Assembly (NCBI GenBank): GCA_963745025.1
Contig: CAVUWD010000011.1
Coordinates: 64,001-128,000 of the forward strand
Direction of reading: 5' to 3'
Source: an uncultured delta proteobacterium
GTDB lineage: Bacteria > Desulfobacterota > Binatia > JACPRU01
DNA length: 64,000 nt
Numbering within the stretch: the stretch's first letter is position 1; each line of letters opens with the position of its first letter. This document shows, piece after piece, positions 33,688 to 41,810 of the stretch. The position numbers were made by a program, and so were the translations under genes. The notes below the pieces were generated by a model. That model searched no databases and was not told where the DNA came from. It saw nothing but the letters and a program-made list of their open reading frames with translations.

Positions 33688-33942
33688 ATGAACTTCGCCG
33701 TGACACTTTCCCAAGCGGCGCTGCGCGAGGAGGTCCGTGCCTTCTACGACGACCTCCGGAGCGCGGCACGTCTGCCGCGACCCGAGCGCCTGAACACCCG
33801 GCCTCTTCTGAGCCGCTTCGCCGAGTCGGACGGGCACGCTCCCGAAGTTGGGCCCGGGCGAGTGGACGCACCCGAGGTCGACGAGATCATCGCCATCTCC
33901 CGGCGCGACACGCGCTCGCATCAACGGGGGAGGGATTCGTGA
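33688..33942 (+). pseudogene. Possible collapsed acyl-CoA dehydrogenase remnant
   Basis: MNFAVTLSQAALREEVRAF resembles ACAD N-termini and DAPEVDEIIAISRR weakly resembles ACAD C-termini; only 84 codons. Confidence 0.3.
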
Positions 33943-34754
33943 CGCGAGTCCTCTCGCCGCTCGTCGTCGGCGTCCGCTGAACCGCCGCGCCGGCCGAAGC
34001 AAACGCCTCGTTTCGAAGTGCGAATGAATTCCACAAGCTCGCCCACCTCCGGTGAGAGCGGCTCCCGTTCGAGCTCGGCGAGCGCGAGCGTCAGATTTCG
34101 CGGGCGCAGGAAGAGAATCTTGAACGCATCGCGGATCGCCCGGATGGCCGACGCCGAGAAGCCGGCGCGACGAAGACCGACGAGATTGACGGCGCGCACG
34201 GAGTGCGTGCCGTCCATGATGCAGAACGGGGGTACGTCGCGACTGGTGCGCGAGAGTCCTCGCAGCAGCGCGAGTCGGCCGATGCGCACGAATTGATGGA
34301 CCACGCAGTTTCCGGAGACGAAGCCGCGGTCGCCGAGCTCCACGTAGCCCGACAGCATGGCGCCTCCCGCGACGATGGCGTCGTTGCCGATCCGGCAATT
34401 GTGCGCGACGTGACTGTTCTGCATGAAGTAGTTGCGGTCGCCGATGAACGTCTCGCTCCCCGGCTTGGTGCCGCGGTGGATCGTCGAGTTCTCGCGGAAG
34501 ACGTTGCCGTTGCCGATGCGAAGGAAGGATTCTGCTCCTGCGAACGCGAGGTCTTGAGGGACATCCCCGAGCACGACGCCCGAATGAACCCGGTTGTCGG
34601 CGCCGATCTCGGCGCCGCCGGTGATCACTACGTGCGCGTGAACGCGCGTTCGCTCACCGAGGCGCACACGCCCCTCGATCACAACGTAGGGGCCGATCTC
34701 GGCGCTCGCATCGATCTCGGCGCGCGGATCCACGATCGCCGTCGGATGGATCAC
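33921..34754 (-). CDS. lpxA: Acyl-ACP--UDP-N-acetylglucosamine O-acyltransferase (LpxA family)
   Basis: [10 protein letters not shown], hexapeptide repeats, [41 protein letters not shown]. Confidence 0.9.
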
Positions 34755-35043: not shown

Positions 35044-36216
35044 TCAAAGGTCGCCGGCTCGTCGTTCGGCGAAGCGCAGGCCGATGAGCGCGAGCGGAAA
35101 CACCCAGAGCCCGATCGCCATTGCCCAGACGAACCAGTGAATCTCGCCGATCAGGCCGAGGAAAAAGAACAGATAGGCGAACTCGCGGTTTCCGAACAGC
35201 TCCATGAGCCCCTCTGCGCGGGCGGACGGATTCCCGCGCGCGATTACCCAGTAGACGGCGACCCAGGTGACGATCACCCCACCGACTGCAATCACGCCGA
35301 GGCGCAGATAGGGGCCGCTCGGATCCGCGAAGTAGGCGTGCAACGCCACACAGGGAAAGAGCACGGCATGCACGACGTTGTCACCGACGATGTCGAGCTT
35401 CGCTCCTTCGGCCGACTCCTGAAATTTGAGTCGGGCGATCTCGCCGTCGCACCCGTCGATGATCGTCGAGGCGAGGAAGAGGAACGAGCCGAGCAGCCCG
35501 AATCCGTAGGTCGGGCGGAGAAGGAGCAGCGCACCGACGATGCCGAGACCGATCGAGAAGATCGTGATGTGGTTCGGCGTGATCGGATACGGCGCGAGCC
35601 AGCGCGAGATCGCCCGTGACATCGCGCGATCGACGTAGCGGGCGAAACGATTCGTGGTGTTGCGCGCCAGCCTCTCGAAGAGCGCGTCCTCGGCCGCGCG
35701 GACGCCGTGATCGAACGTCACGCGCACGTAGAGAGGCGGCGCTTCGATCCGGCGAAACGTCCGTGCGCGTTGGCGGAGCGGGCTCCAACCGGTCGCGACG
35801 AGGGCGGCGATCTCGTCGCCATCGGCGGAGAATGGCCCCTCGGCCGAAGCCGCCGCCGGCTCGCCGCGCGCGGCCGCCAGCTCGGCGAGATGTGCGGCGT
35901 CGACGATCCAGCGGTCGGAGAACACCACCCAGCGCCCGCCCGCCGCACGGATGCCATCGAGCCATCCCTCGGCGGGGCGGAGCACCTCCCATTGCCTGCC
36001 GGCGAGATGGCGGTCGTCCGAGAGCGCCCGGCGGATCCCCTCCGCCAGGCCATCCGCGACGATGATGATGCGCTCGAAGCCCGCGCGACATGCCGTGTAG
36101 ACCGCGCGCCGCCACAGCTCGAGTCCCGCGACCCGATCCGAAGGCTCGCTACACCAGACCAGGATCTGGCTGCCGGGCACGCGTCGGTCGAGGCCGCCGC
36201 TCAAATCGAGCGCCAT
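35044..36216 (-). CDS. CDP-alcohol phosphatidyltransferase with a degenerate N-terminal nucleotidyltransferase-like domain (IPCT/DIPPS-like layout)
   Basis: ITPNHIT, DGCDGEIARLKFQES..GAKLDIVGD; N-terminal RVAGLELWRRAV...AGFERIIIV; TGATG overlap with the upstream gene. Confidence 0.85.
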   Translation of the reverse strand: MALDLSGGLDRRVPGSQILVWCSEPSDRVAGLELWRRAVYTACRAGFERIIIVADGLAEGIRRALSDDRHLAGRQWEVLRPAEGWLDGIRAAGGRWVVFSDRWIVDAAHLAELAAARGEPAAASAEGPFSADGDEIAALVATGWSPLRQRARTFRRIEAPPLYVRVTFDHGVRAAEDALFERLARNTTNRFARYVDRAMSRAISRWLAPYPITPNHITIFSIGLGIVGALLLLRPTYGFGLLGSFLFLASTIIDGCDGEIARLKFQESAEGAKLDIVGDNVVHAVLFPCVALHAYFADPSGPYLRLGVIAVGGVIVTWVAVYWVIARGNPSARAEGLMELFGNREFAYLFFFLGLIGEIHWFVWAMAIGLWVFPLALIGLRFAERRAGDL

Positions 36217-37250
36217 CAGCCCTCTTCCCGGGCCGGCTCCGTCGGCTCGACGAGCGAGACGAGCTGCCCGTCGGAACGATAGGCGGCCGCCACCAGCTCG
36301 GCCACACAGACTGCCTCGGCGAGATTTCGCCCGCGCTGGTCCGCGTGCTGCATCTCGGCGCGGAAATCTTCGAGCAGCGCCGGAAACCACTCGGGATGGT
36401 AGGAACTCGCCGAGAGCGGCGGCGAGAAGCGGGTTTCCTCGGCGGGTCGATTGGTCGGGGTCACCACGAGGCGATCGTCCTCGATCGCAATATCGCCGAG
36501 GGAGCCACGAACGACGCCCGCGGTTCGGCGCTCGGCCGCTCCCCAGCGGAGCTCGATTCGCCCCCGTGGCCCGCCGAAGTCGATCTCGCACTCGACACGA
36601 TCTTCGACGCCGAAGCCGAGCTCGGCACCGATTCGCGCCGAGATCGATCGCGGCGGCCGCCCGGTGAGGAACCGCATGAGATAGAAGGCATGCCAGCCGT
36701 GGTCCATGAGAATGCCTCCACCCGCCTGCTCGCGATCGAGACGCCAGCCCGCCTCGCTCGCCCCTCGCGGTGGGTTCGGCCGGAGCACCCGCCAATCGAT
36801 CGCGACGAGCTCGCCGATCGCGCCGGCGCGCAACAAGCCGTGAAGGCGGCGGAAGAGCGGCGCGTACTTCCAGTTGTGAACGGTGAATACCGCGCGCCCG
36901 CTTCGCCGGGCGACCCTACGGATCTCGCCGATCTCGCCGAGATCGAGGGCGAGCGGCTTCTCGCAGAGCACATGGAGGCCGCGATCGAGCGCCTCGATCA
37001 CGATCGGAGCGTGGAAGCGCGGCGGCGTGGCGACGTCGACGAAGTCGAGCTTCGGCTCCGCTTCCACCGCAGAAGCGAAATCGCCGTAGGCCCGCGCGCC
37101 GGGCAGCGCGGCGAGCGCTCGAGCCCGCTCCGCTTCGGAGGGCTCGATCACGGCCGCGATCTCGAAGGCCGGCGTCGCCCGGAAGCCCGGCAGGTGCGCT
37201 TCGGCGGCAACCCGGCCGAAGCCGATGATCGCACCCCTGTGTTTCTTCAC
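36216..37250 (-). CDS. Gfo/Idh/MocA family oxidoreductase
   Basis: IIGFGRVA, VATPP..H, HVLCEKP, GGGILMDHGWH. Confidence 0.9.
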   Translation of the reverse strand: MKKHRGAIIGFGRVAAEAHLPGFRATPAFEIAAVIEPSEAERARALAALPGARAYGDFASAVEAEPKLDFVDVATPPRFHAPIVIEALDRGLHVLCEKPLALDLGEIGEIRRVARRSGRAVFTVHNWKYAPLFRRLHGLLRAGAIGELVAIDWRVLRPNPPRGASEAGWRLDREQAGGGILMDHGWHAFYLMRFLTGRPPRSISARIGAELGFGVEDRVECEIDFGGPRGRIELRWGAAERRTAGVVRGSLGDIAIEDDRLVVTPTNRPAEETRFSPPLSASSYHPEWFPALLEDFRAEMQHADQRGRNLAEAVCVAELVAAAYRSDGQLVSLVEPTEPAREEG

Positions 37251-38596
37251 CGATAGCTGCCATCACGGGCGATCTCGGCGAATACCTCGTCGAGGACACC
37301 GAGCCCGGCGTCCATCTCTTCACGGGTGATCGTCAGGGGCGGATTGATGCGCACGCGCGGCATGTAGCCCATGATCAGCAGCCCGCGACGCAGACACTCG
37401 AGAAAGATCCGCTCGGTGACCTTCTTGGGGAGCGGTTCCTTCGTCTTGCGATCCTTGACGAGATCGAGCCCGATGAGCAGTCCGACACCGCGGACGTCGC
37501 CGAGGAACTCGTACTTCTCCTGCATGGCTCGAAGGCGCGATTTCATCTCCGCCCCGAGATCCGCGGAGCGCTCCACGAGATTCTCGTCGATGATGGTTTC
37601 GAGCGTGGCGAGCGCGGCGGTGGCGGCGAGCGGGTTACCGCCGTAGCTCGAAGAAGCGCCCGATGGCTTCGCCCATGGCTCGGCCCGCGAGATGTCGTCG
37701 GTCGAGATCACCGCCGTGACCGGGTAGCCGGAGGCCATGCCCTTGCCGGTCGTCATGATGTCGGGAACGACGCCGCTGTGCTCTACGCCGAACATCTTGC
37801 CGGTGCGGGCGAAGCCGGTGATCATCTCATCGGCGATCAACAGGGCTCCCGCCTCGTGTGCGATGTCGCGGATCGCGGGCAAGAATTCGGGCGGCGGCAC
37901 GACGTTGCCGGCTGTTCCCTGCATCGGTTCGATGAGCACCGCGCTGACGGCGCCGGAGGTCGCATTCCGGATGGTCTTCCGCGCGAACTCGGCGCAGGCC
38001 ACGCCGCAGCTCGGGTAGTCGAGGCCGATCGGGCAGCGGTAGCAGTCGGCGTAGGGCGTGAGAAATCGTCCCCCGGGAAGCGGCCCCCAGCCGTGCTTGC
38101 CCTCGTCACCCATCAGCCCCATCACGCCGGTCGTCTTTCCGTGGAAGCCGCCCCAAAAGCCGACGACCTCGTACGACTTGGTGTAGGACTTGGCGAGCCG
38201 GATCGCGGCCTCCACGGCCTCCGCCCCACTCGAATAGAGCTGCGCTCGGTCGAGCGCGCCGGGCATCACGGCGGCGAGCTTCTTCAGAAAGTCCAGGCGG
38301 TTCGGGGTGGTGAAGCTGCCGACCGAGATCCGTCGAATCTGCGCTTCCATCCGCTCGACCCAGTGCGGATGCGAGTGGCCGAGGCTCGCCACGGCCACGC
38401 CCGCAAAGAAGTCGACGTAGCGGTTGCCGTCGGCATCCTCGATCGTCGCACCCTTCCCGGACGTGAGCGTCAGCTCGGACATCAGCGCGATGCGCTGGAG
38501 GCCAGGCGCGATCGTCCGCTGCTCCTCGGCGAAGATCCGCCGCGACTCGGGCCCGGGGCGAGCGAGAGTCATGCGCCCTTTTTCCTTCACATCCAT
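37247..38596 (-). CDS. Class III PLP-dependent aminotransferase
   Basis: DADGNRYVDF, SGAEAVEAA, GFHGKT, IEPMQG, LIADEMITGFARTG, DIMTTGKG, SSYGGNP. Confidence 0.92.
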   Translation of the reverse strand: MDVKEKGRMTLARPGPESRRIFAEEQRTIAPGLQRIALMSELTLTSGKGATIEDADGNRYVDFFAGVAVASLGHSHPHWVERMEAQIRRISVGSFTTPNRLDFLKKLAAVMPGALDRAQLYSSGAEAVEAAIRLAKSYTKSYEVVGFWGGFHGKTTGVMGLMGDEGKHGWGPLPGGRFLTPYADCYRCPIGLDYPSCGVACAEFARKTIRNATSGAVSAVLIEPMQGTAGNVVPPPEFLPAIRDIAHEAGALLIADEMITGFARTGKMFGVEHSGVVPDIMTTGKGMASGYPVTAVISTDDISRAEPWAKPSGASSSYGGNPLAATAALATLETIIDENLVERSADLGAEMKSRLRAMQEKYEFLGDVRGVGLLIGLDLVKDRKTKEPLPKKVTERIFLECLRRGLLIMGYMPRVRINPPLTITREEMDAGLGVLDEVFAEIARDGSYR

Positions 38597-38600
38597 CGTT

Positions 38601-39416
38601 TTATCGCTCGGCTACGGGGCTACGGGGGCACGGTGCCTCTCGCGTAGCCGTTATTTCCCTCAGCCGCCGGCCTATCGCTCCCGCCGCCTCGGTCCGGCAG
38701 CGGGAGAAGCTCGGCCAGTCGTTGAAGTCGATCAGCGTGAGCGATCTGTCGGCGGCGCAGACGCCGTCACCGCCGTAGACGTCGAGCCCGAGCGCGGCGG
38801 CCCCGCGCTCGGCCAGCGTCGCAGCGCGGTCCTGCTGGCCGGCGGGCAACCCGTAGGCCCGGAAGAACCCCCCTTTGACTCCATAGAACTTGTACACGGC
38901 TCCCTCGACGTGCTCCTGCACGATCGCTTGGCCAATACCCCGGTGCTCGAACTCTGCGGTCATTCGCGCCCAGTCGTCCTCCGTGAATACTCGATGTACG
39001 TCGCCCGCCTGCATGGCATGCACATCCCCGCGTTTCAACCACGGACCCGAACCGAGAGACCCAGGAAATCGCTCGCCCGCGAGCGCCCAGCGGGGCTGCG
39101 GCACGCCCGCTCGCGCGAGCCGTTCGACGAGATTCGTGCGATGGCAGCCGCGGATGGCCTCGGGATGGTTCACCACGGGGGTCCGCTTTGCGACCTCGTC
39201 CAGCCATCCGAGCGCCGCGGCGCTCTGACACATGGCGAAGACCAACGCGGGACGAGTCTCCAATCGTGGCAATCGGTCGCCGTCGAGCATGCGCACCCGG
39301 AGGCCAGCGCGGCGGAGCTCCGCGGCGACGAGGTCGATGATGGCGCGGTCGTCCTCCACCTTGCCGGGAGAAAAGCGCTCCTCCCGATAGATGCCGATGA
39401 CGTCGCCCTCAGCCAT
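38601..39416 (-). CDS. ATP-grasp protein resembling inositol-phosphate kinases (ITPK1-like)
   Basis: WLKRGDVH, IVQEHVEG.VYKFYGV, GLDVYGGD, LIDFNDWPSF. Confidence 0.7.
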   Translation of the reverse strand: MAEGDVIGIYREERFSPGKVEDDRAIIDLVAAELRRAGLRVRMLDGDRLPRLETRPALVFAMCQSAAALGWLDEVAKRTPVVNHPEAIRGCHRTNLVERLARAGVPQPRWALAGERFPGSLGSGPWLKRGDVHAMQAGDVHRVFTEDDWARMTAEFEHRGIGQAIVQEHVEGAVYKFYGVKGGFFRAYGLPAGQQDRAATLAERGAAALGLDVYGGDGVCAADRSLTLIDFNDWPSFSRCRTEAAGAIGRRLREITATREAPCPRSPVAER

Positions 39417-40107
39417 TGACCTTCAGGAATTGCTCCGCGACCGCGACGTCCTCGGGACGATCGACGTCCACCGAGTCGCCGGCCCGGAACCCGTGGAGCG
39501 GCGCACCCTCCTCGACGAGAAGCGCGAGAAATTCGCGAAGCGCCGAGAGCTTTCGCCGGCGCGCCTCGCCGACGTGGTCGTAGACGACCGGGAAGAAGAA
39601 GTATGCCCCGCTCGTCACCCAGCCGCTTCCCACAGCGGTTGCGCCGAGCGCGACGATCTCCTCCTCTGCCCCGAGTCTTACCCAGAGCGGTTTTTCGTCG
39701 TCCACGAAGCTCGTGACCGCCAGCGTCCCCGTCGGTCCCGCGGCGAGGCCGGCGCGCGCCAGCGCTGCGAGCGTCCGCTTGGCGGTGATCGCGTCGACGG
39801 TGGTGAGAAGGAATGGGGAGTCGTGCAGCTGAGGCTCGAGGGCGAAGAAGCTCTCCATCGAACTCGGTGTCGTCTTCACCGTGAGCTCGACCGGTACCGG
39901 CCATCGCTCTGCGCGCACGTAGCGAGCGACCTCGGGGAACTCGGCATTGACGATCAGCGCCACCGTTTCCGCTCCGGAGGCGGCCGCCGACTCGATCGCG
40001 CGCCGCAGCAGCGTCTTGCCCCCCACGTTCAAGAGCGGCTTCGGGGTGGCGATGCCGGCGCTGCGAAAGCGCTCTCCGAGGCCGGCGGCGATGATCCCCG
40101 CCTTCAT
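39409..40107 (-). CDS. Nucleotidyltransferase (NTP_transferase family)
   Basis: MKAGIIAAGLGERF...PKPL, KTTPSSMESF, LTTVD, DDEKPL, DVDRPED; ATGA overlap with the HAD stop. Confidence 0.88.
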   Translation of the reverse strand: MKAGIIAAGLGERFRSAGIATPKPLLNVGGKTLLRRAIESAAASGAETVALIVNAEFPEVARYVRAERWPVPVELTVKTTPSSMESFFALEPQLHDSPFLLTTVDAITAKRTLAALARAGLAAGPTGTLAVTSFVDDEKPLWVRLGAEEEIVALGATAVGSGWVTSGAYFFFPVVYDHVGEARRRKLSALREFLALLVEEGAPLHGFRAGDSVDVDRPEDVAVAEQFLKVNG

Positions 40108-40790
40108 CGAAGCGCTCCGCCCGGAAGCGGCTCTATCTCCTCGAGCCGGGAAATCACCCGATCGGCGATGCCCGCCTCCGGCGGTGGCGCGCTTCCGCGG
40201 CGGAGCCAGATCGCGCGCATGCCGATCGTCCGTGCGGCGCGAACGTCGCGGTCGAAGTTGTCGCCGACCATGACGACGTCCTCGGGGGGAAGCGCCAGCC
40301 GTGCGGCGGCGAGCCGATAGATCGCCGGATCGGGCTTCTCGATTCCGACCCGCACCGATTCGACGACCGCATCGAGGAACGGCGAAAGGCCGGCTTCCTC
40401 GAGAAGGACATCGAGATTTCCGTAGAAGTTGGAGACCACTCCGAGCCGCGATCCCCCGTGCAAACGCGACAGCGTCGCGCGCGAACGCTGCCAGCCCTCT
40501 GCGGTCATTTCGCAAAATCCCCGGACGACCTCGGCGGCGAAGCGCCGCGCACCGCCGCCGAGCACGGCCATCTGCAGCTCGACGTGACGCTCGAGAAGAG
40601 CGCGGAGTCGTAATCCCTGGCGTCGTGCTTCTTCAGCGATGATCTGCTCCGCACCGTAGAACGCCTGCTTGATCTGCTGCTCGGGTATTTGGCAGCCAGA
40701 GCGCCGGTAGAGGTAAAGCGTGCGATCGAACCAGTGCCAGCCCTCGCCGTCGAGCGTGCCGCCGTAATCGAAGAGATAGCCGCGAGGCAG
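40104..40790 (-). CDS. HAD family hydrolase (probable CTG start)
   Basis: Motif I FDYGGTLD lies upstream of the ORF-track ATG in the same open frame; also VVSNFYGN, EKPDP, MVGDN..RD. GGAGG lies 9 nt before CTG 40790. Confidence 0.85.
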   Translation of the reverse strand: MPRGYLFDYGGTLDGEGWHWFDRTLYLYRRSGCQIPEQQIKQAFYGAEQIIAEEARRQGLRLRALLERHVELQMAVLGGGARRFAAEVVRGFCEMTAEGWQRSRATLSRLHGGSRLGVVSNFYGNLDVLLEEAGLSPFLDAVVESVRVGIEKPDPAIYRLAAARLALPPEDVVMVGDNFDRDVRAARTIGMRAIWLRRGSAPPPEAGIADRVISRLEEIEPLPGGALR

Positions 40791-40794
40791 ACCG

Positions 40795-41664
40795 CTATTC
40801 CTCCCCGCGCGGCGCGCGGTGTCCTTCGAGACCCCCGTTCATTTCCGAGAACATCACCTCACCGAGCGACGCTTTGCGATAGCCGACGGGCGGCTTGAAC
40901 TCGGCTTCGGGGATGTCCCCCTTCTCGATCGTCTCAATCTCGGTTTTGGTCAGCGCCTGGCCTCCGGAATGAGACACGGCCTTCAGCGGCCACCCCTGCG
41001 GATAGAGCATCTGATAGATCTTCCCCTCGTCGACGCCCTTGGTGTGCGCGTCCGGATCGCTCGACTGCGCGCACGCCGAGACCCGGCTCATCAGCGCGGA
41101 GGCCTTATCGAGCGCAAACTCTCGGGCGAGGGCGGGATCGGTGGTCAGCCAGTCCTCTTCGTAGAGCTTGCCGTCGACGAGCACTCGATACTTGCGCGTC
41201 GGTTGCCCGGCGATGGCCGCGGTGTCGTCGGTACGCTCCAACTTGATCACGCCTGGCCCGGGCGCTTCCTTCTCCGCCTCCGCCGCTCGCTTCGCCGCCA
41301 GGGTCTTGCGCAGCTCCTCCACCTTGGCGCGCTGATCGGGGGGAAGCTTCGAGAGCTGAGCCTCCATCTGCTGTTCCATGGACTTGGCAATCGATTTTGC
41401 GGTCTCGCGGATCGTGGTGCAAAGCTCCTCGATCGTGCCCTCCCAGTAGACCCTGTGGTCGGGATTGGACATCCACGCTCGCGCGGTGGCGAGATCGAAG
41501 ACCGACTGTGGCCCCTCGCCCGCGAGTTCCTTGACCTTGCCCTTCGAGACCAGAGTACGACCGCCCTCCTTGTCGGTGAGCACGAAGCCCGCCTCGACCG
41601 TAGAGCTGGCGAGCGCCGTCCCGAGCACCACGAGACCCACGACACCACCGATCGGAAGCTTCAT
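40795..41664 (-). CDS. Exported DUF4412-like protein
   Basis: Signal peptide; IAGQPTRKY...EDWLT and IPEAEFKPPVGY are typical of DUF4412-type proteins. Confidence 0.6.
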   Translation of the reverse strand: MKLPIGGVVGLVVLGTALASSTVEAGFVLTDKEGGRTLVSKGKVKELAGEGPQSVFDLATARAWMSNPDHRVYWEGTIEELCTTIRETAKSIAKSMEQQMEAQLSKLPPDQRAKVEELRKTLAAKRAAEAEKEAPGPGVIKLERTDDTAAIAGQPTRKYRVLVDGKLYEEDWLTTDPALAREFALDKASALMSRVSACAQSSDPDAHTKGVDEGKIYQMLYPQGWPLKAVSHSGGQALTKTEIETIEKGDIPEAEFKPPVGYRKASLGEVMFSEMNGGLEGHRAPRGEE

Positions 41665-41810
41665 CGTCGTCTCCTCACCACGGTTCCCTTTGCACCGAGC
41701 CACCGGCCTTTAGCATGCCTGCGACGAGAACCAATTGCAGCGGCCGACCTCCGCTGGCGCCCCTGCCGGGCTCGGCTCCCGCATCACCCGCGTCGGCGCG
41801 GCGGCCGCGC

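Follow-up and report, generated by a model that had tools for sequence, protein, structure and literature searches.

The IPCT/DIPPS enzyme and AF2299 of Archaeoglobus fulgidus belong to the di-myo-inositol-phosphate (DIP) pathway, and in the scyllo-inosamine pathways of rhizopine and streptomycin a hydroxyl is converted through a ketone to an amine by a Gfo/Idh/MocA dehydrogenase together with an aminotransferase of the DegT/class-V type, the products being free metabolites or antibiotics. A route in which a lipid alcohol receives its head group from cytidine diphosphate (CDP)-inositol and not from a CDP-lipid has been described for Rhodothermus marinus, whose operon combines myo-inositol-phosphate synthase (MIPS), IPCT and the CDP-inositol-dependent inositol lipid synthase BEPIS (Jorge et al. 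2015, as cited in PMC4587543). For Bacteroides (Phocaeicola) vulgatus and Prevotella, the main text of Heaver 2022 (PMC9246714) describes a putative 'alternative inositol lipid cluster' with the genes BVU_RS13095 (nucleotidyltransferase), RS13105 (CDP-alcohol phosphatidyltransferase) and RS13115 (HAD protein), and reports phosphatidylinositol (PI)-dihydroceramide in B. vulgatus and P. veroralis, species with only this type of cluster; the term 'ATP-grasp' occurs nowhere in that main text. We analyzed a six-gene operon that resembles each of these systems in part, located in a 64,000-nucleotide stretch of DNA (hereafter the window; G+C ~66%) from an uncultured delta proteobacterium (GenBank assembly GCA_963745025.1, contig CAVUWD010000011.1, positions 64,001 to 128,000).

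Six minus-strand genes fill positions 35044-40790 of the window, and Pfam and NCBIfam profile searches of their products identified five: the genes for an atypical HAD-superfamily protein and a nucleotidyltransferase, which come first, and those for a class-III aminotransferase, a Gfo/Idh/MocA dehydrogenase and a CDP-alcohol phosphotransferase, which come last; the third gene encodes a protein recognized as ATP-grasp by its fold (Table 1). Tight coupling of these genes, with junctions of at most 8 nt, had been claimed in a preliminary description made from the sequence, and the five junctions bear this out: the HAD and nucleotidyltransferase genes overlap by 4 nt (ATGA), the nucleotidyltransferase and ATP-grasp genes by 8 nt, the aminotransferase and dehydrogenase genes by 4 nt (GTGA), and the dehydrogenase and phosphotransferase genes by 1 nt (TGATG, the ATG at 36216 overlapping the dehydrogenase stop), while a gap of 4 nt separates the ATP-grasp and aminotransferase genes. 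We propose that this operon is probably an aminating version of a widespread, uncharacterized cassette, which would make an inositol-derived phospho-head group and deliver it to a membrane lipid by a CDP-alcohol (Kennedy-like) route. This proposal draws on what we observed: the identities of the genes, their catalytic signatures, their co-conservation and, in relatives, their linkage to MIPS and lipid-handling genes. What would be new here is the addition of an amination module and two unexplained enzymes to the known CDP-alcohol type of head-group synthesis.

The conservation of the six genes was evaluated in relatives collected with the ATP-grasp protein as query, one genome per species; the best 80 loci of 562 relatives were kept, and these together with ten hand-picked loci, five of them chosen because MIPS is near, made up 90 loci whose gene content was read by tblastn, the six proteins of the window serving as queries. 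A trio of HAD, nucleotidyltransferase and ATP-grasp genes was present in 77 of the 80 loci, including P. vulgatus (L084) and many Prevotella, which confirmed the likeness to the alternative inositol-lipid locus of Bacteroidetes that the preliminary description had suggested. The aminotransferase was found in 29 of these 80 loci and the dehydrogenase in 22, never without the aminotransferase, and 15 loci held all six genes with a transferase of the window type. The 51 loci that lacked the aminotransferase came mostly from Prevotella, Phocaeicola, Bacteroides and their kin. Hosts of the aminotransferase loci were metagenome-assembled genomes labelled delta proteobacterium, Polyangiaceae, Syntrophobacteraceae, Desulfarculales, Binatia, Bdellovibrionales, Bacteriovoracaceae and Elusimicrobiota, and one such locus was from an isolate, Desulfoferrobacter suflitae DRH4 (L017). 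A sample of 300 further genomes from the phylum of the window contained 24 with the ATP-grasp gene (E <= 1e-10). Exactly these 24 also had an aminotransferase ortholog (E <= 1e-120), in each case on the contig of the ATP-grasp gene, and the remaining 276 had none. A profile of the transferase (E <= 1e-50) matched 20 of the 24 cluster genomes, the four misses being 61-88% complete, as well as 12 of the 276 cluster-free genomes, mostly more weakly or over the membrane domain only; for five genomes without the transferase at the locus, a full-length ortholog was located elsewhere in all five. Co-conservation, on which the preliminary description had made its reading depend, was therefore observed: the dehydrogenase and aminotransferase travel with the trio. 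The strict coupling of these two genes argues for an action of the pair on an intermediate of the pathway itself.

Comparison with the cluster of Heaver 2022 showed homologs of three window proteins with the same motifs, at identities of 28-40% for the HAD protein, 30-39% for the nucleotidyltransferase and 30-41% for the ATP-grasp protein, a nucleotidyltransferase gene that adjoins the ATP-grasp gene, and a CDP-alcohol phosphotransferase gene within the cluster. The motifs that the preliminary description had quoted were all present in the window (FDYGGTLD..GWHW, KTTPSSMESF, DDEKPL and IDFNDWPSF). In P. vulgatus ATCC 8482 the order of genes is nucleotidyltransferase, ATP-grasp, CDP-alcohol phosphotransferase, LPG_synthase_TM, HAD, MFS, PfkB and MIPS, and the window proteins matched this locus by tblastn with identities of 30% (HAD), 34% (nucleotidyltransferase) and 32% (ATP-grasp). 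The window operon differs from that cluster by its additional Gfo/Idh/MocA dehydrogenase and class-III aminotransferase, by having neither MIPS nor LPG_synthase_TM, and by a transferase of another subtype, which has an IPCT-like N-domain and is ~29% identical over ~100 residues to that of P. vulgatus.

No MIPS gene was found in the 64-kb window in searches with the MIPS of the same genome and with a long-type MIPS, as the preliminary description had noted. However, nine loci with the dehydrogenase gene, the aminotransferase gene or both (L026, L027, L104, L020, L095, L096 and L097-L099) have MIPS within the cluster or next to it. Two of these (L026 and L027) have the order dehydrogenase, MIPS, ATP-grasp, CDP-alcohol phosphotransferase and LPG_synthase_TM, with HAD and nucleotidyltransferase genes on the reverse strand and then the aminotransferase, and in L104 the order is HAD, nucleotidyltransferase, MIPS, ATP-grasp, aminotransferase, dehydrogenase. 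A flippase-like gene of the LPG_synthase_TM family was present in 14 of the 29 aminotransferase loci, and genes for MlaC, an outer-membrane efflux protein and a B12-radical-SAM protein were frequent neighbors of the cluster; this gene context favors a lipid over a solute as the product. Elsewhere in the genome, where the preliminary description had proposed looking, there is a single MIPS gene, on contig C16, followed within ~45 nt by an LPG_synthase_TM gene, which suggests that this organism may make an inositol lipid independently of the operon. The idea that this pair is the operon's missing half was not supported, as the flippase-like proteins linked to the cluster in relatives are closer to a paralog at C16:984149.

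The C-terminal membrane domain of the CDP-alcohol phosphotransferase retains the CDP-alcohol signature DGx2ARx8Gx3Dx3D intact (in the window, DGCDGEIARLKFQESAEGAKLDIVGD), and D250, G251, G254, A257, R258, G267, D271 and D275 were invariant in 25 orthologs. Its N-domain is IPCT-like and has lost the GxGxR/PKPL nucleotide-binding signature (the region reads LVWCSEPSDRVAG), GxGxR being absent from the N-domain of all 25 aligned orthologs. A profile of these orthologs matched AF2299 (4O6M) at 3.7e-38 and IPCT-DIPPS (4MND) at 8e-28, the latter alignment extending from the N-domain (profile position 15) through the membrane domain. The IPCT/DIPPS-like layout of the preliminary description thus holds for the two domains and for the CDP-alcohol signature, but not for the N-domain, which is degenerate. 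Among NCBIfam models, the best match was to the DIPPS half of NF041135 (5e-18), ahead of AIPS (1e-12) and PIPS (6e-11), all under cut-off, and the protein scored 65.3 bits against the NF041135 equivalog, far under its cut-off of 580. As the N-domain lacks nucleotide-binding motifs, activation is probably performed by the stand-alone nucleotidyltransferase. The window operon also has a separate IPCT-like nucleotidyltransferase, and it differs from the DIP pathway in a context that points to a lipid, as opposed to a solute, and to a modified (aminated) cyclitol. The proposed use of CDP-inositol chemistry on a lipid alcohol, and the organization of relatives' genes around MIPS, are shared with the R. 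marinus route as it is described, whereas that description reports none of the ATP-grasp, HAD, dehydrogenase and aminotransferase genes in the R. marinus operon.

The nucleotidyltransferase has an intact signature (AAGLGERF...PKPL), matched the IPCT half of NF041135 at 1.3e-9, under the cut-off, and was 29-59% identical to the gene that adjoins the ATP-grasp gene in relatives. The two genes are neighbors almost everywhere among relatives, and in 4 of the 80 loci, all from Prevotella (Bacteroidota), they form one reading frame of 468-553 aa (Table 1). An apparent fusion in L014 proved to be an artefact, a read-through of out-of-frame sequence, and was excluded from this count. The ATP-grasp protein itself matched no Pfam family at E <= 0.01, and an ESM Atlas search returned unnamed clusters only. 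An AlphaFold model built with an alignment of 43 orthologs (mean pLDDT 93.3) was compared with known structures; in VIA-align, LysX, ArgX and RimK (Z 21-22) ranked ~4 Z units above the inositol kinases PPIP5K2 and ITPK1 (Z 17-18), the top LysX/RimK matches having Z 21.1-21.8 and a root-mean-square deviation of 2.7-3.1 over 236-244 residues, and the top 50 Foldseek matches were Ddl, LysX and PsnB. A profile search of PDB sequences ranked PsnB (7e-7) ahead of ITPK4 (1.7e-4, a match spanning the C-terminal D-x-N-x-x-P-S-F region), ITPK1 (~0.01) and RimK (0.011). Weak Pfam matches were found among the 43 members to ATPgrasp_ST (6), RimK (5; PF08443, best E 0.0015) and Ins134_P3_kin (3; PF05770), and TIGR00768 scored 21 bits relative to a cut-off of 143. 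As modeled, then, the third gene encodes a protein of ATP-grasp fold from an uncharacterized family. For its role we favor a cyclitol or cyclitol-phosphate kinase that would feed the cytidylyltransferase, with a ligase as the alternative, because the gene adjoins or is fused to that of the nucleotidyltransferase and kinase-nucleotidyltransferase fusions are a familiar pattern in activation pathways.

Motif I of the HAD protein reads FDYGGTLD, in which the nucleophile Asp is kept and Gly occupies the position of the Asp+2 general acid/base; motifs II-IV (VVSN, EKPD and GDNFDRD) are present. The pattern D-[YFL]-G-G-[TC] was found in 84 of 85 orthologs and Asp at +2 in none, the remaining locus being partial and masked. 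The window protein (D-Y-G-G-T) therefore does not have motif I of the DxDxT-class phosphatases, and of the 'HAD phosphatase' in the preliminary description the family assignment stands, while the phosphatase general acid is missing. In established HAD enzymology Asp+2 is the general acid/base of phosphatases and mutases, and as this residue is always Gly here, an ordinary phosphomonoesterase activity is unlikely; the protein may instead use a substrate that has a good leaving group (a pyrophosphate or phosphoanhydride), or it may be a phosphotransferase. In two Binatia clusters (L029 and L046), the aminotransferase and dehydrogenase genes are separated by a small additional gene of the HAD-IIIA (PNK3P/GmhB-like) type, which may encode the actual phosphatase of the pathway in those lineages; genes for luciferase-like or FAD/BBE oxidases accompany it. 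The start of the window's HAD gene was also unusual. No ATG, GTG or TTG precedes the catalytic motif in the HAD frame, and the sole candidate is a CTG at 40790-40788, 4 nt past the stop of the upstream gene; the 82% identical ortholog in L010 has CTG at the same codon, -7, and most orthologs have an ATG 6-14 codons before the Asp. CTG is probably the start codon, and it may reflect coupled re-initiation at a non-canonical start.

The aminotransferase matched PF00202 over its full length (E 3.3e-97, residues 42-438), contains the pyridoxal phosphate (PLP)-lysine motif TTGKG, and has GABA aminotransferases as its nearest PDB relatives (3.9e-72). It fell under the cut-off of every NCBIfam equivalog, including the model of a phosphonate-pathway lyase that it matched, and it was the most conserved of the six proteins, with a median identity across relatives of 59% versus 38-45% for its neighbors. 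The dehydrogenase is a member of the Gfo/Idh/MocA family by Pfam and has the catalytic motifs EKP and D-x3-H. Its best NCBIfam match was inositol 2-dehydrogenase IolG (TIGR04380; 86.7 bits, cut-off 355), and it weakly matched an archaeal UDP-GlcNAc 3-dehydrogenase (2.7e-16). The proposed pair follows the same hydroxyl-to-ketone-to-amine logic, with a dehydrogenase of the same family, as the scyllo-inosamine pairs, and differs from them in that the aminotransferase belongs to class III and the product would be CDP-activated.

We consider it reasonably probable that in this pathway an inositol is oxidized, transaminated, CDP-activated and transferred to a lipid. In the scheme we propose, myo-inositol phosphate would be supplied by the genome's MIPS, encoded on another contig; the Gfo/Idh/MocA enzyme would oxidize a ring hydroxyl to a ketone (inositol to inosose), and the class-III aminotransferase would convert this ketone to an amine, yielding an inosamine-type cyclitol. 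The nucleotidyltransferase would then combine the cyclitol phosphate with CTP to give a CDP-activated cyclitol, from which the DIPPS/AF2299-like transferase would move the phospho-amino-cyclitol to a lipid alcohol such as diacylglycerol, ceramide or possibly a hopanoid polyol. The ATP-grasp kinase would supply or reposition the phosphate for activation, and the HAD protein would strip a leftover phosphate or pyrophosphate, or act as a phosphotransferase. A possible rationale for these two steps is that the phosphate position of the MIPS product is opposite to the lipid-linking position in ordinary PI, so that a Kennedy-type route would need the phosphate to be moved, or a second one to be added and the extra one later removed. 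We infer each substrate, the order of the steps, the amination itself, the CDP-amino-cyclitol intermediate and the acceptor from gene content and sequence. The more specific prediction, of a membrane lipid whose head group is an amino-deoxy-inositol (inosamine) phosphate made via CDP-inosamine, with an ATP-grasp cyclitol (phosphate) kinase and a general-acid-free HAD protein both new to head-group synthesis, is offered tentatively. Neither an inosamine or amino-inositol lipid nor any functional follow-up of the alternative inositol-lipid pathway turned up in the literature searched, which excluded subscription papers and supplements.

Several observations weigh against the proposal of an inositol-derived, aminated lipid head group. 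To our knowledge, the characterized inosose aminotransferases are of the DegT type and not of class III. The dehydrogenase scored far under the IolG cut-off, the HAD protein is without the phosphatase general acid, and the ATP-grasp protein is structurally nearer to LysX/RimK ligases (Z ~22) than to inositol-phosphate kinases (Z ~18). The proteins of solved structure nearest to the transferase, AF2299 and DIPPS, act or are presumed to act on soluble substrates, and no flippase-like gene adjoins the operon in the window. The link to inositol also varies in weight. MIPS was found within 7 kb in only 3 of the 29 aminotransferase loci of the unbiased 80, and the ten hand-picked loci are biased for MIPS linkage. 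At the level of whole genomes, MIPS was present in 19 of the 24 genomes that have the cluster in the phylum sample (the other five being 62-90% complete) and in 5 of 5 further amino-type genomes, but also in 163 of the 276 cluster-free genomes, and as MIPS is common in the phylum anyway, its presence in a genome is weak evidence; local linkage of MIPS to the cluster, as read from gene order, is the stronger evidence for inositol. Finally, the alternative pathway of Bacteroidota is itself only 'putative' in the main text of Heaver 2022 (PMC9246714).

We weighed these points together with four other explanations of the operon. A soluble, DIP-like solute, in which a CDP-(amino-)cyclitol would be coupled to another cyclitol phosphate, with the HAD protein then removing the phosphate that remains, would account for the ranking of AF2299, IPCT-DIPPS and the NCBIfam DIPPS model as best matches of the transferase, and for a combination of nucleotidyltransferase, DIPPS-like enzyme and HAD protein that mirrors the layout of DIP synthesis. 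Nevertheless we regard it as unlikely: the HAD protein has no phosphatase general acid, LPG_synthase_TM, MlaC and outer-membrane genes recur as neighbors, and DIP is known from hyperthermophiles, whereas the carriers of this cluster are soil and sediment mesophiles. The main text of Heaver 2022 (PMC9246714) also describes a correlation of the Bacteroidota version with inositol sphingolipid production. The occurrence of MIPS within or adjoining dehydrogenase and/or aminotransferase clusters in nine relatives, a trio common to the MIPS-linked Bacteroidota clusters, and a transferase nearest to enzymes that use inositol phosphates make it quite unlikely that the head group is instead an acyclic amino-polyol (aminopentanetetrol from a pentitol, or serinol phosphate from a triose) that is CDP-activated and transferred onto lipid. 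That explanation would suit the class-III aminotransferases, which judging by the PDB relatives usually act on terminal aldehydes or amines, as well as a dehydrogenase that is not an IolG equivalog and a window without MIPS; aminopentanetetrol phospholipids, moreover, exist.

It is very unlikely that the product is plain phosphatidylinositol or inositol-phosphoceramide, with the pair either auxiliary (for epimerization via inosose) or engaged in an unrelated amino-acid reaction. Such a role for the pair would be consistent with the unusual conservation of the aminotransferase, which is housekeeping-like, and with a Bacteroidota version that works without the pair and yields plain PI-dihydroceramide as reported in the main text of Heaver 2022 (PMC9246714); however, the aminotransferase ortholog was confined to genomes with the ATP-grasp gene and to the same contig in 24 of 24, and the dehydrogenase never occurred without it. 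Chemistry on nucleotide sugars or lipid A (of the GnnA/GnnB or WbpB/WbpE kind on a UDP-sugar), or on a CMP-activated aminophosphonate, which the preliminary description had named as an outcome that would overturn its cyclitol reading, is highly improbable. The lpxA gene does lie 290 nt downstream of the operon on the same strand, and the weak UDP-GlcNAc 3-dehydrogenase match and the phosphonate-pathway lyase match noted above would fit these two versions, respectively. A role in lipid A synthesis or of the GnnAB type is nevertheless unlikely because lpxA and the gene for a predicted secreted protein directly upstream of the operon adjoin the cluster only in its two closest relatives among the 90 loci, L010 and L019. 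GnnB/WbpE-type enzymes, in addition, belong to the DegT family and not to class III. As to phosphonates, a search with the PEP_mutase-family protein of the same genome (E <= 1e-5) yielded no PEP-mutase-like gene, either in the window or across the 90 loci; matches to that family in the genome lie on other contigs, and the PEP_mutase Pfam model is unspecific, matching 11 of 14 control genomes.

If the proposed aminated inositol lipid is made, its cationic or zwitterionic head group would alter the charge of the envelope, and environmental lipidomics would gain a new class of biomarker for uncultured lineages that abound in soil and sediment (carrying the labels delta-proteobacterial, Binatia, Myxococcota-like and Bdellovibrionales). 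In that case the steps of the ATP-grasp and HAD proteins would also fill gaps in the inositol-sphingolipid pathway of gut Bacteroidota. As the trio is shared, studies of this operon would at the same time be a test of the alternative inositol-lipid pathway of human-gut Prevotella and Phocaeicola, a model that, as given in the main text of its description, omits the conserved ATP-grasp protein. The cultured carrier D. suflitae DRH4 makes the question directly testable.

Table 1. Locations of the operon genes and of other features named in the text (window positions unless a locus, L, or a contig, C, is given; G000 is the window's own genome)
Feature	Location	Strand	Size	Basis
Atypical HAD-superfamily protein	40104..40790	-	228 aa	PF00702 E 3e-17, PF13242 E 1.5e-15
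Nucleotidyltransferase	39409..40107	-	232 aa	PF12804 E 1.2e-11, PF00483 E 2.6e-7
ATP-grasp protein	38601..39416	-	271 aa	Fold by AlphaFold model and structure matches
Class-III (GABA-AT-like) PLP aminotransferase	37247..38596	-	449 aa	PF00202 E 3e-97
Gfo/Idh/MocA NAD(P) dehydrogenase	36216..37250	-	344 aa	PF01408 E 1.7e-22, PF22725 E 1.4e-23
CDP-alcohol phosphotransferase	35044..36216	-	390 aa	PF01066 E 1.7e-9
Upstream protein	40795-41703		302 aa	Signal-peptide-like N-terminus
lpxA	33921-34754	-
MIPS, then LPG_synthase_TM	G000:C16:553885-555929 (L113:7886-9930)
Squalene-hopene cyclase, own genome	G000:C11:154590-155543
Nucleotidyltransferase/ATP-grasp fusions	L055:4189-5592, L059:4866-6524, L063:3480-5030, L071:6239-7897		468-553 aa	One reading frame
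Small HAD-IIIA (PNK3P/GmhB-like)	L029:9228-9704, L046:10745-11215
B12-binding radical-SAM	L017:4106-5566, L029:2034-3362, L046:2638-3975
HpnH-like radical-SAM	L029:13275-14279, L046:13180-14178, L102:7082-8068, L095:26-664			DUF3463
Squalene-hopene cyclase, relative	L032:2141-3997
Open reading frame ahead of dehydrogenase/MIPS genes	L026:3352-4536		394 aa

A scan of the window for promoters and terminators returned nothing beyond shuffled expectation. The protein encoded directly upstream of the operon, which has a signal-peptide-like N-terminus, had no Pfam match and was conserved among the 90 loci in L010 and L019 only. A hopanoid gene was found within the fetched flanks of 5 of the 90 loci, HpnH-like radical-SAM (DUF3463) genes being located near the cluster in four and a squalene-hopene cyclase gene in one (Table 1). 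In the window's own genome a distance of ~50 kb separates the squalene-hopene cyclase gene from the operon, and the HpnH-like gene belongs to a different contig; this window therefore lends no weight to a hopanoid linkage of the operon. A B12-binding radical-SAM gene is absent from the window, although many loci of delta-type and Binatia genomes have one beside the cluster (Table 1), with further tblastn matches in L011, L024, L028, L038 and L102; its product may take part in head-group methylation or in chemistry of the lipid tail. In the Bdellovibrionales cluster L026, an open reading frame of 394 aa that has no Pfam match precedes the dehydrogenase and MIPS genes.

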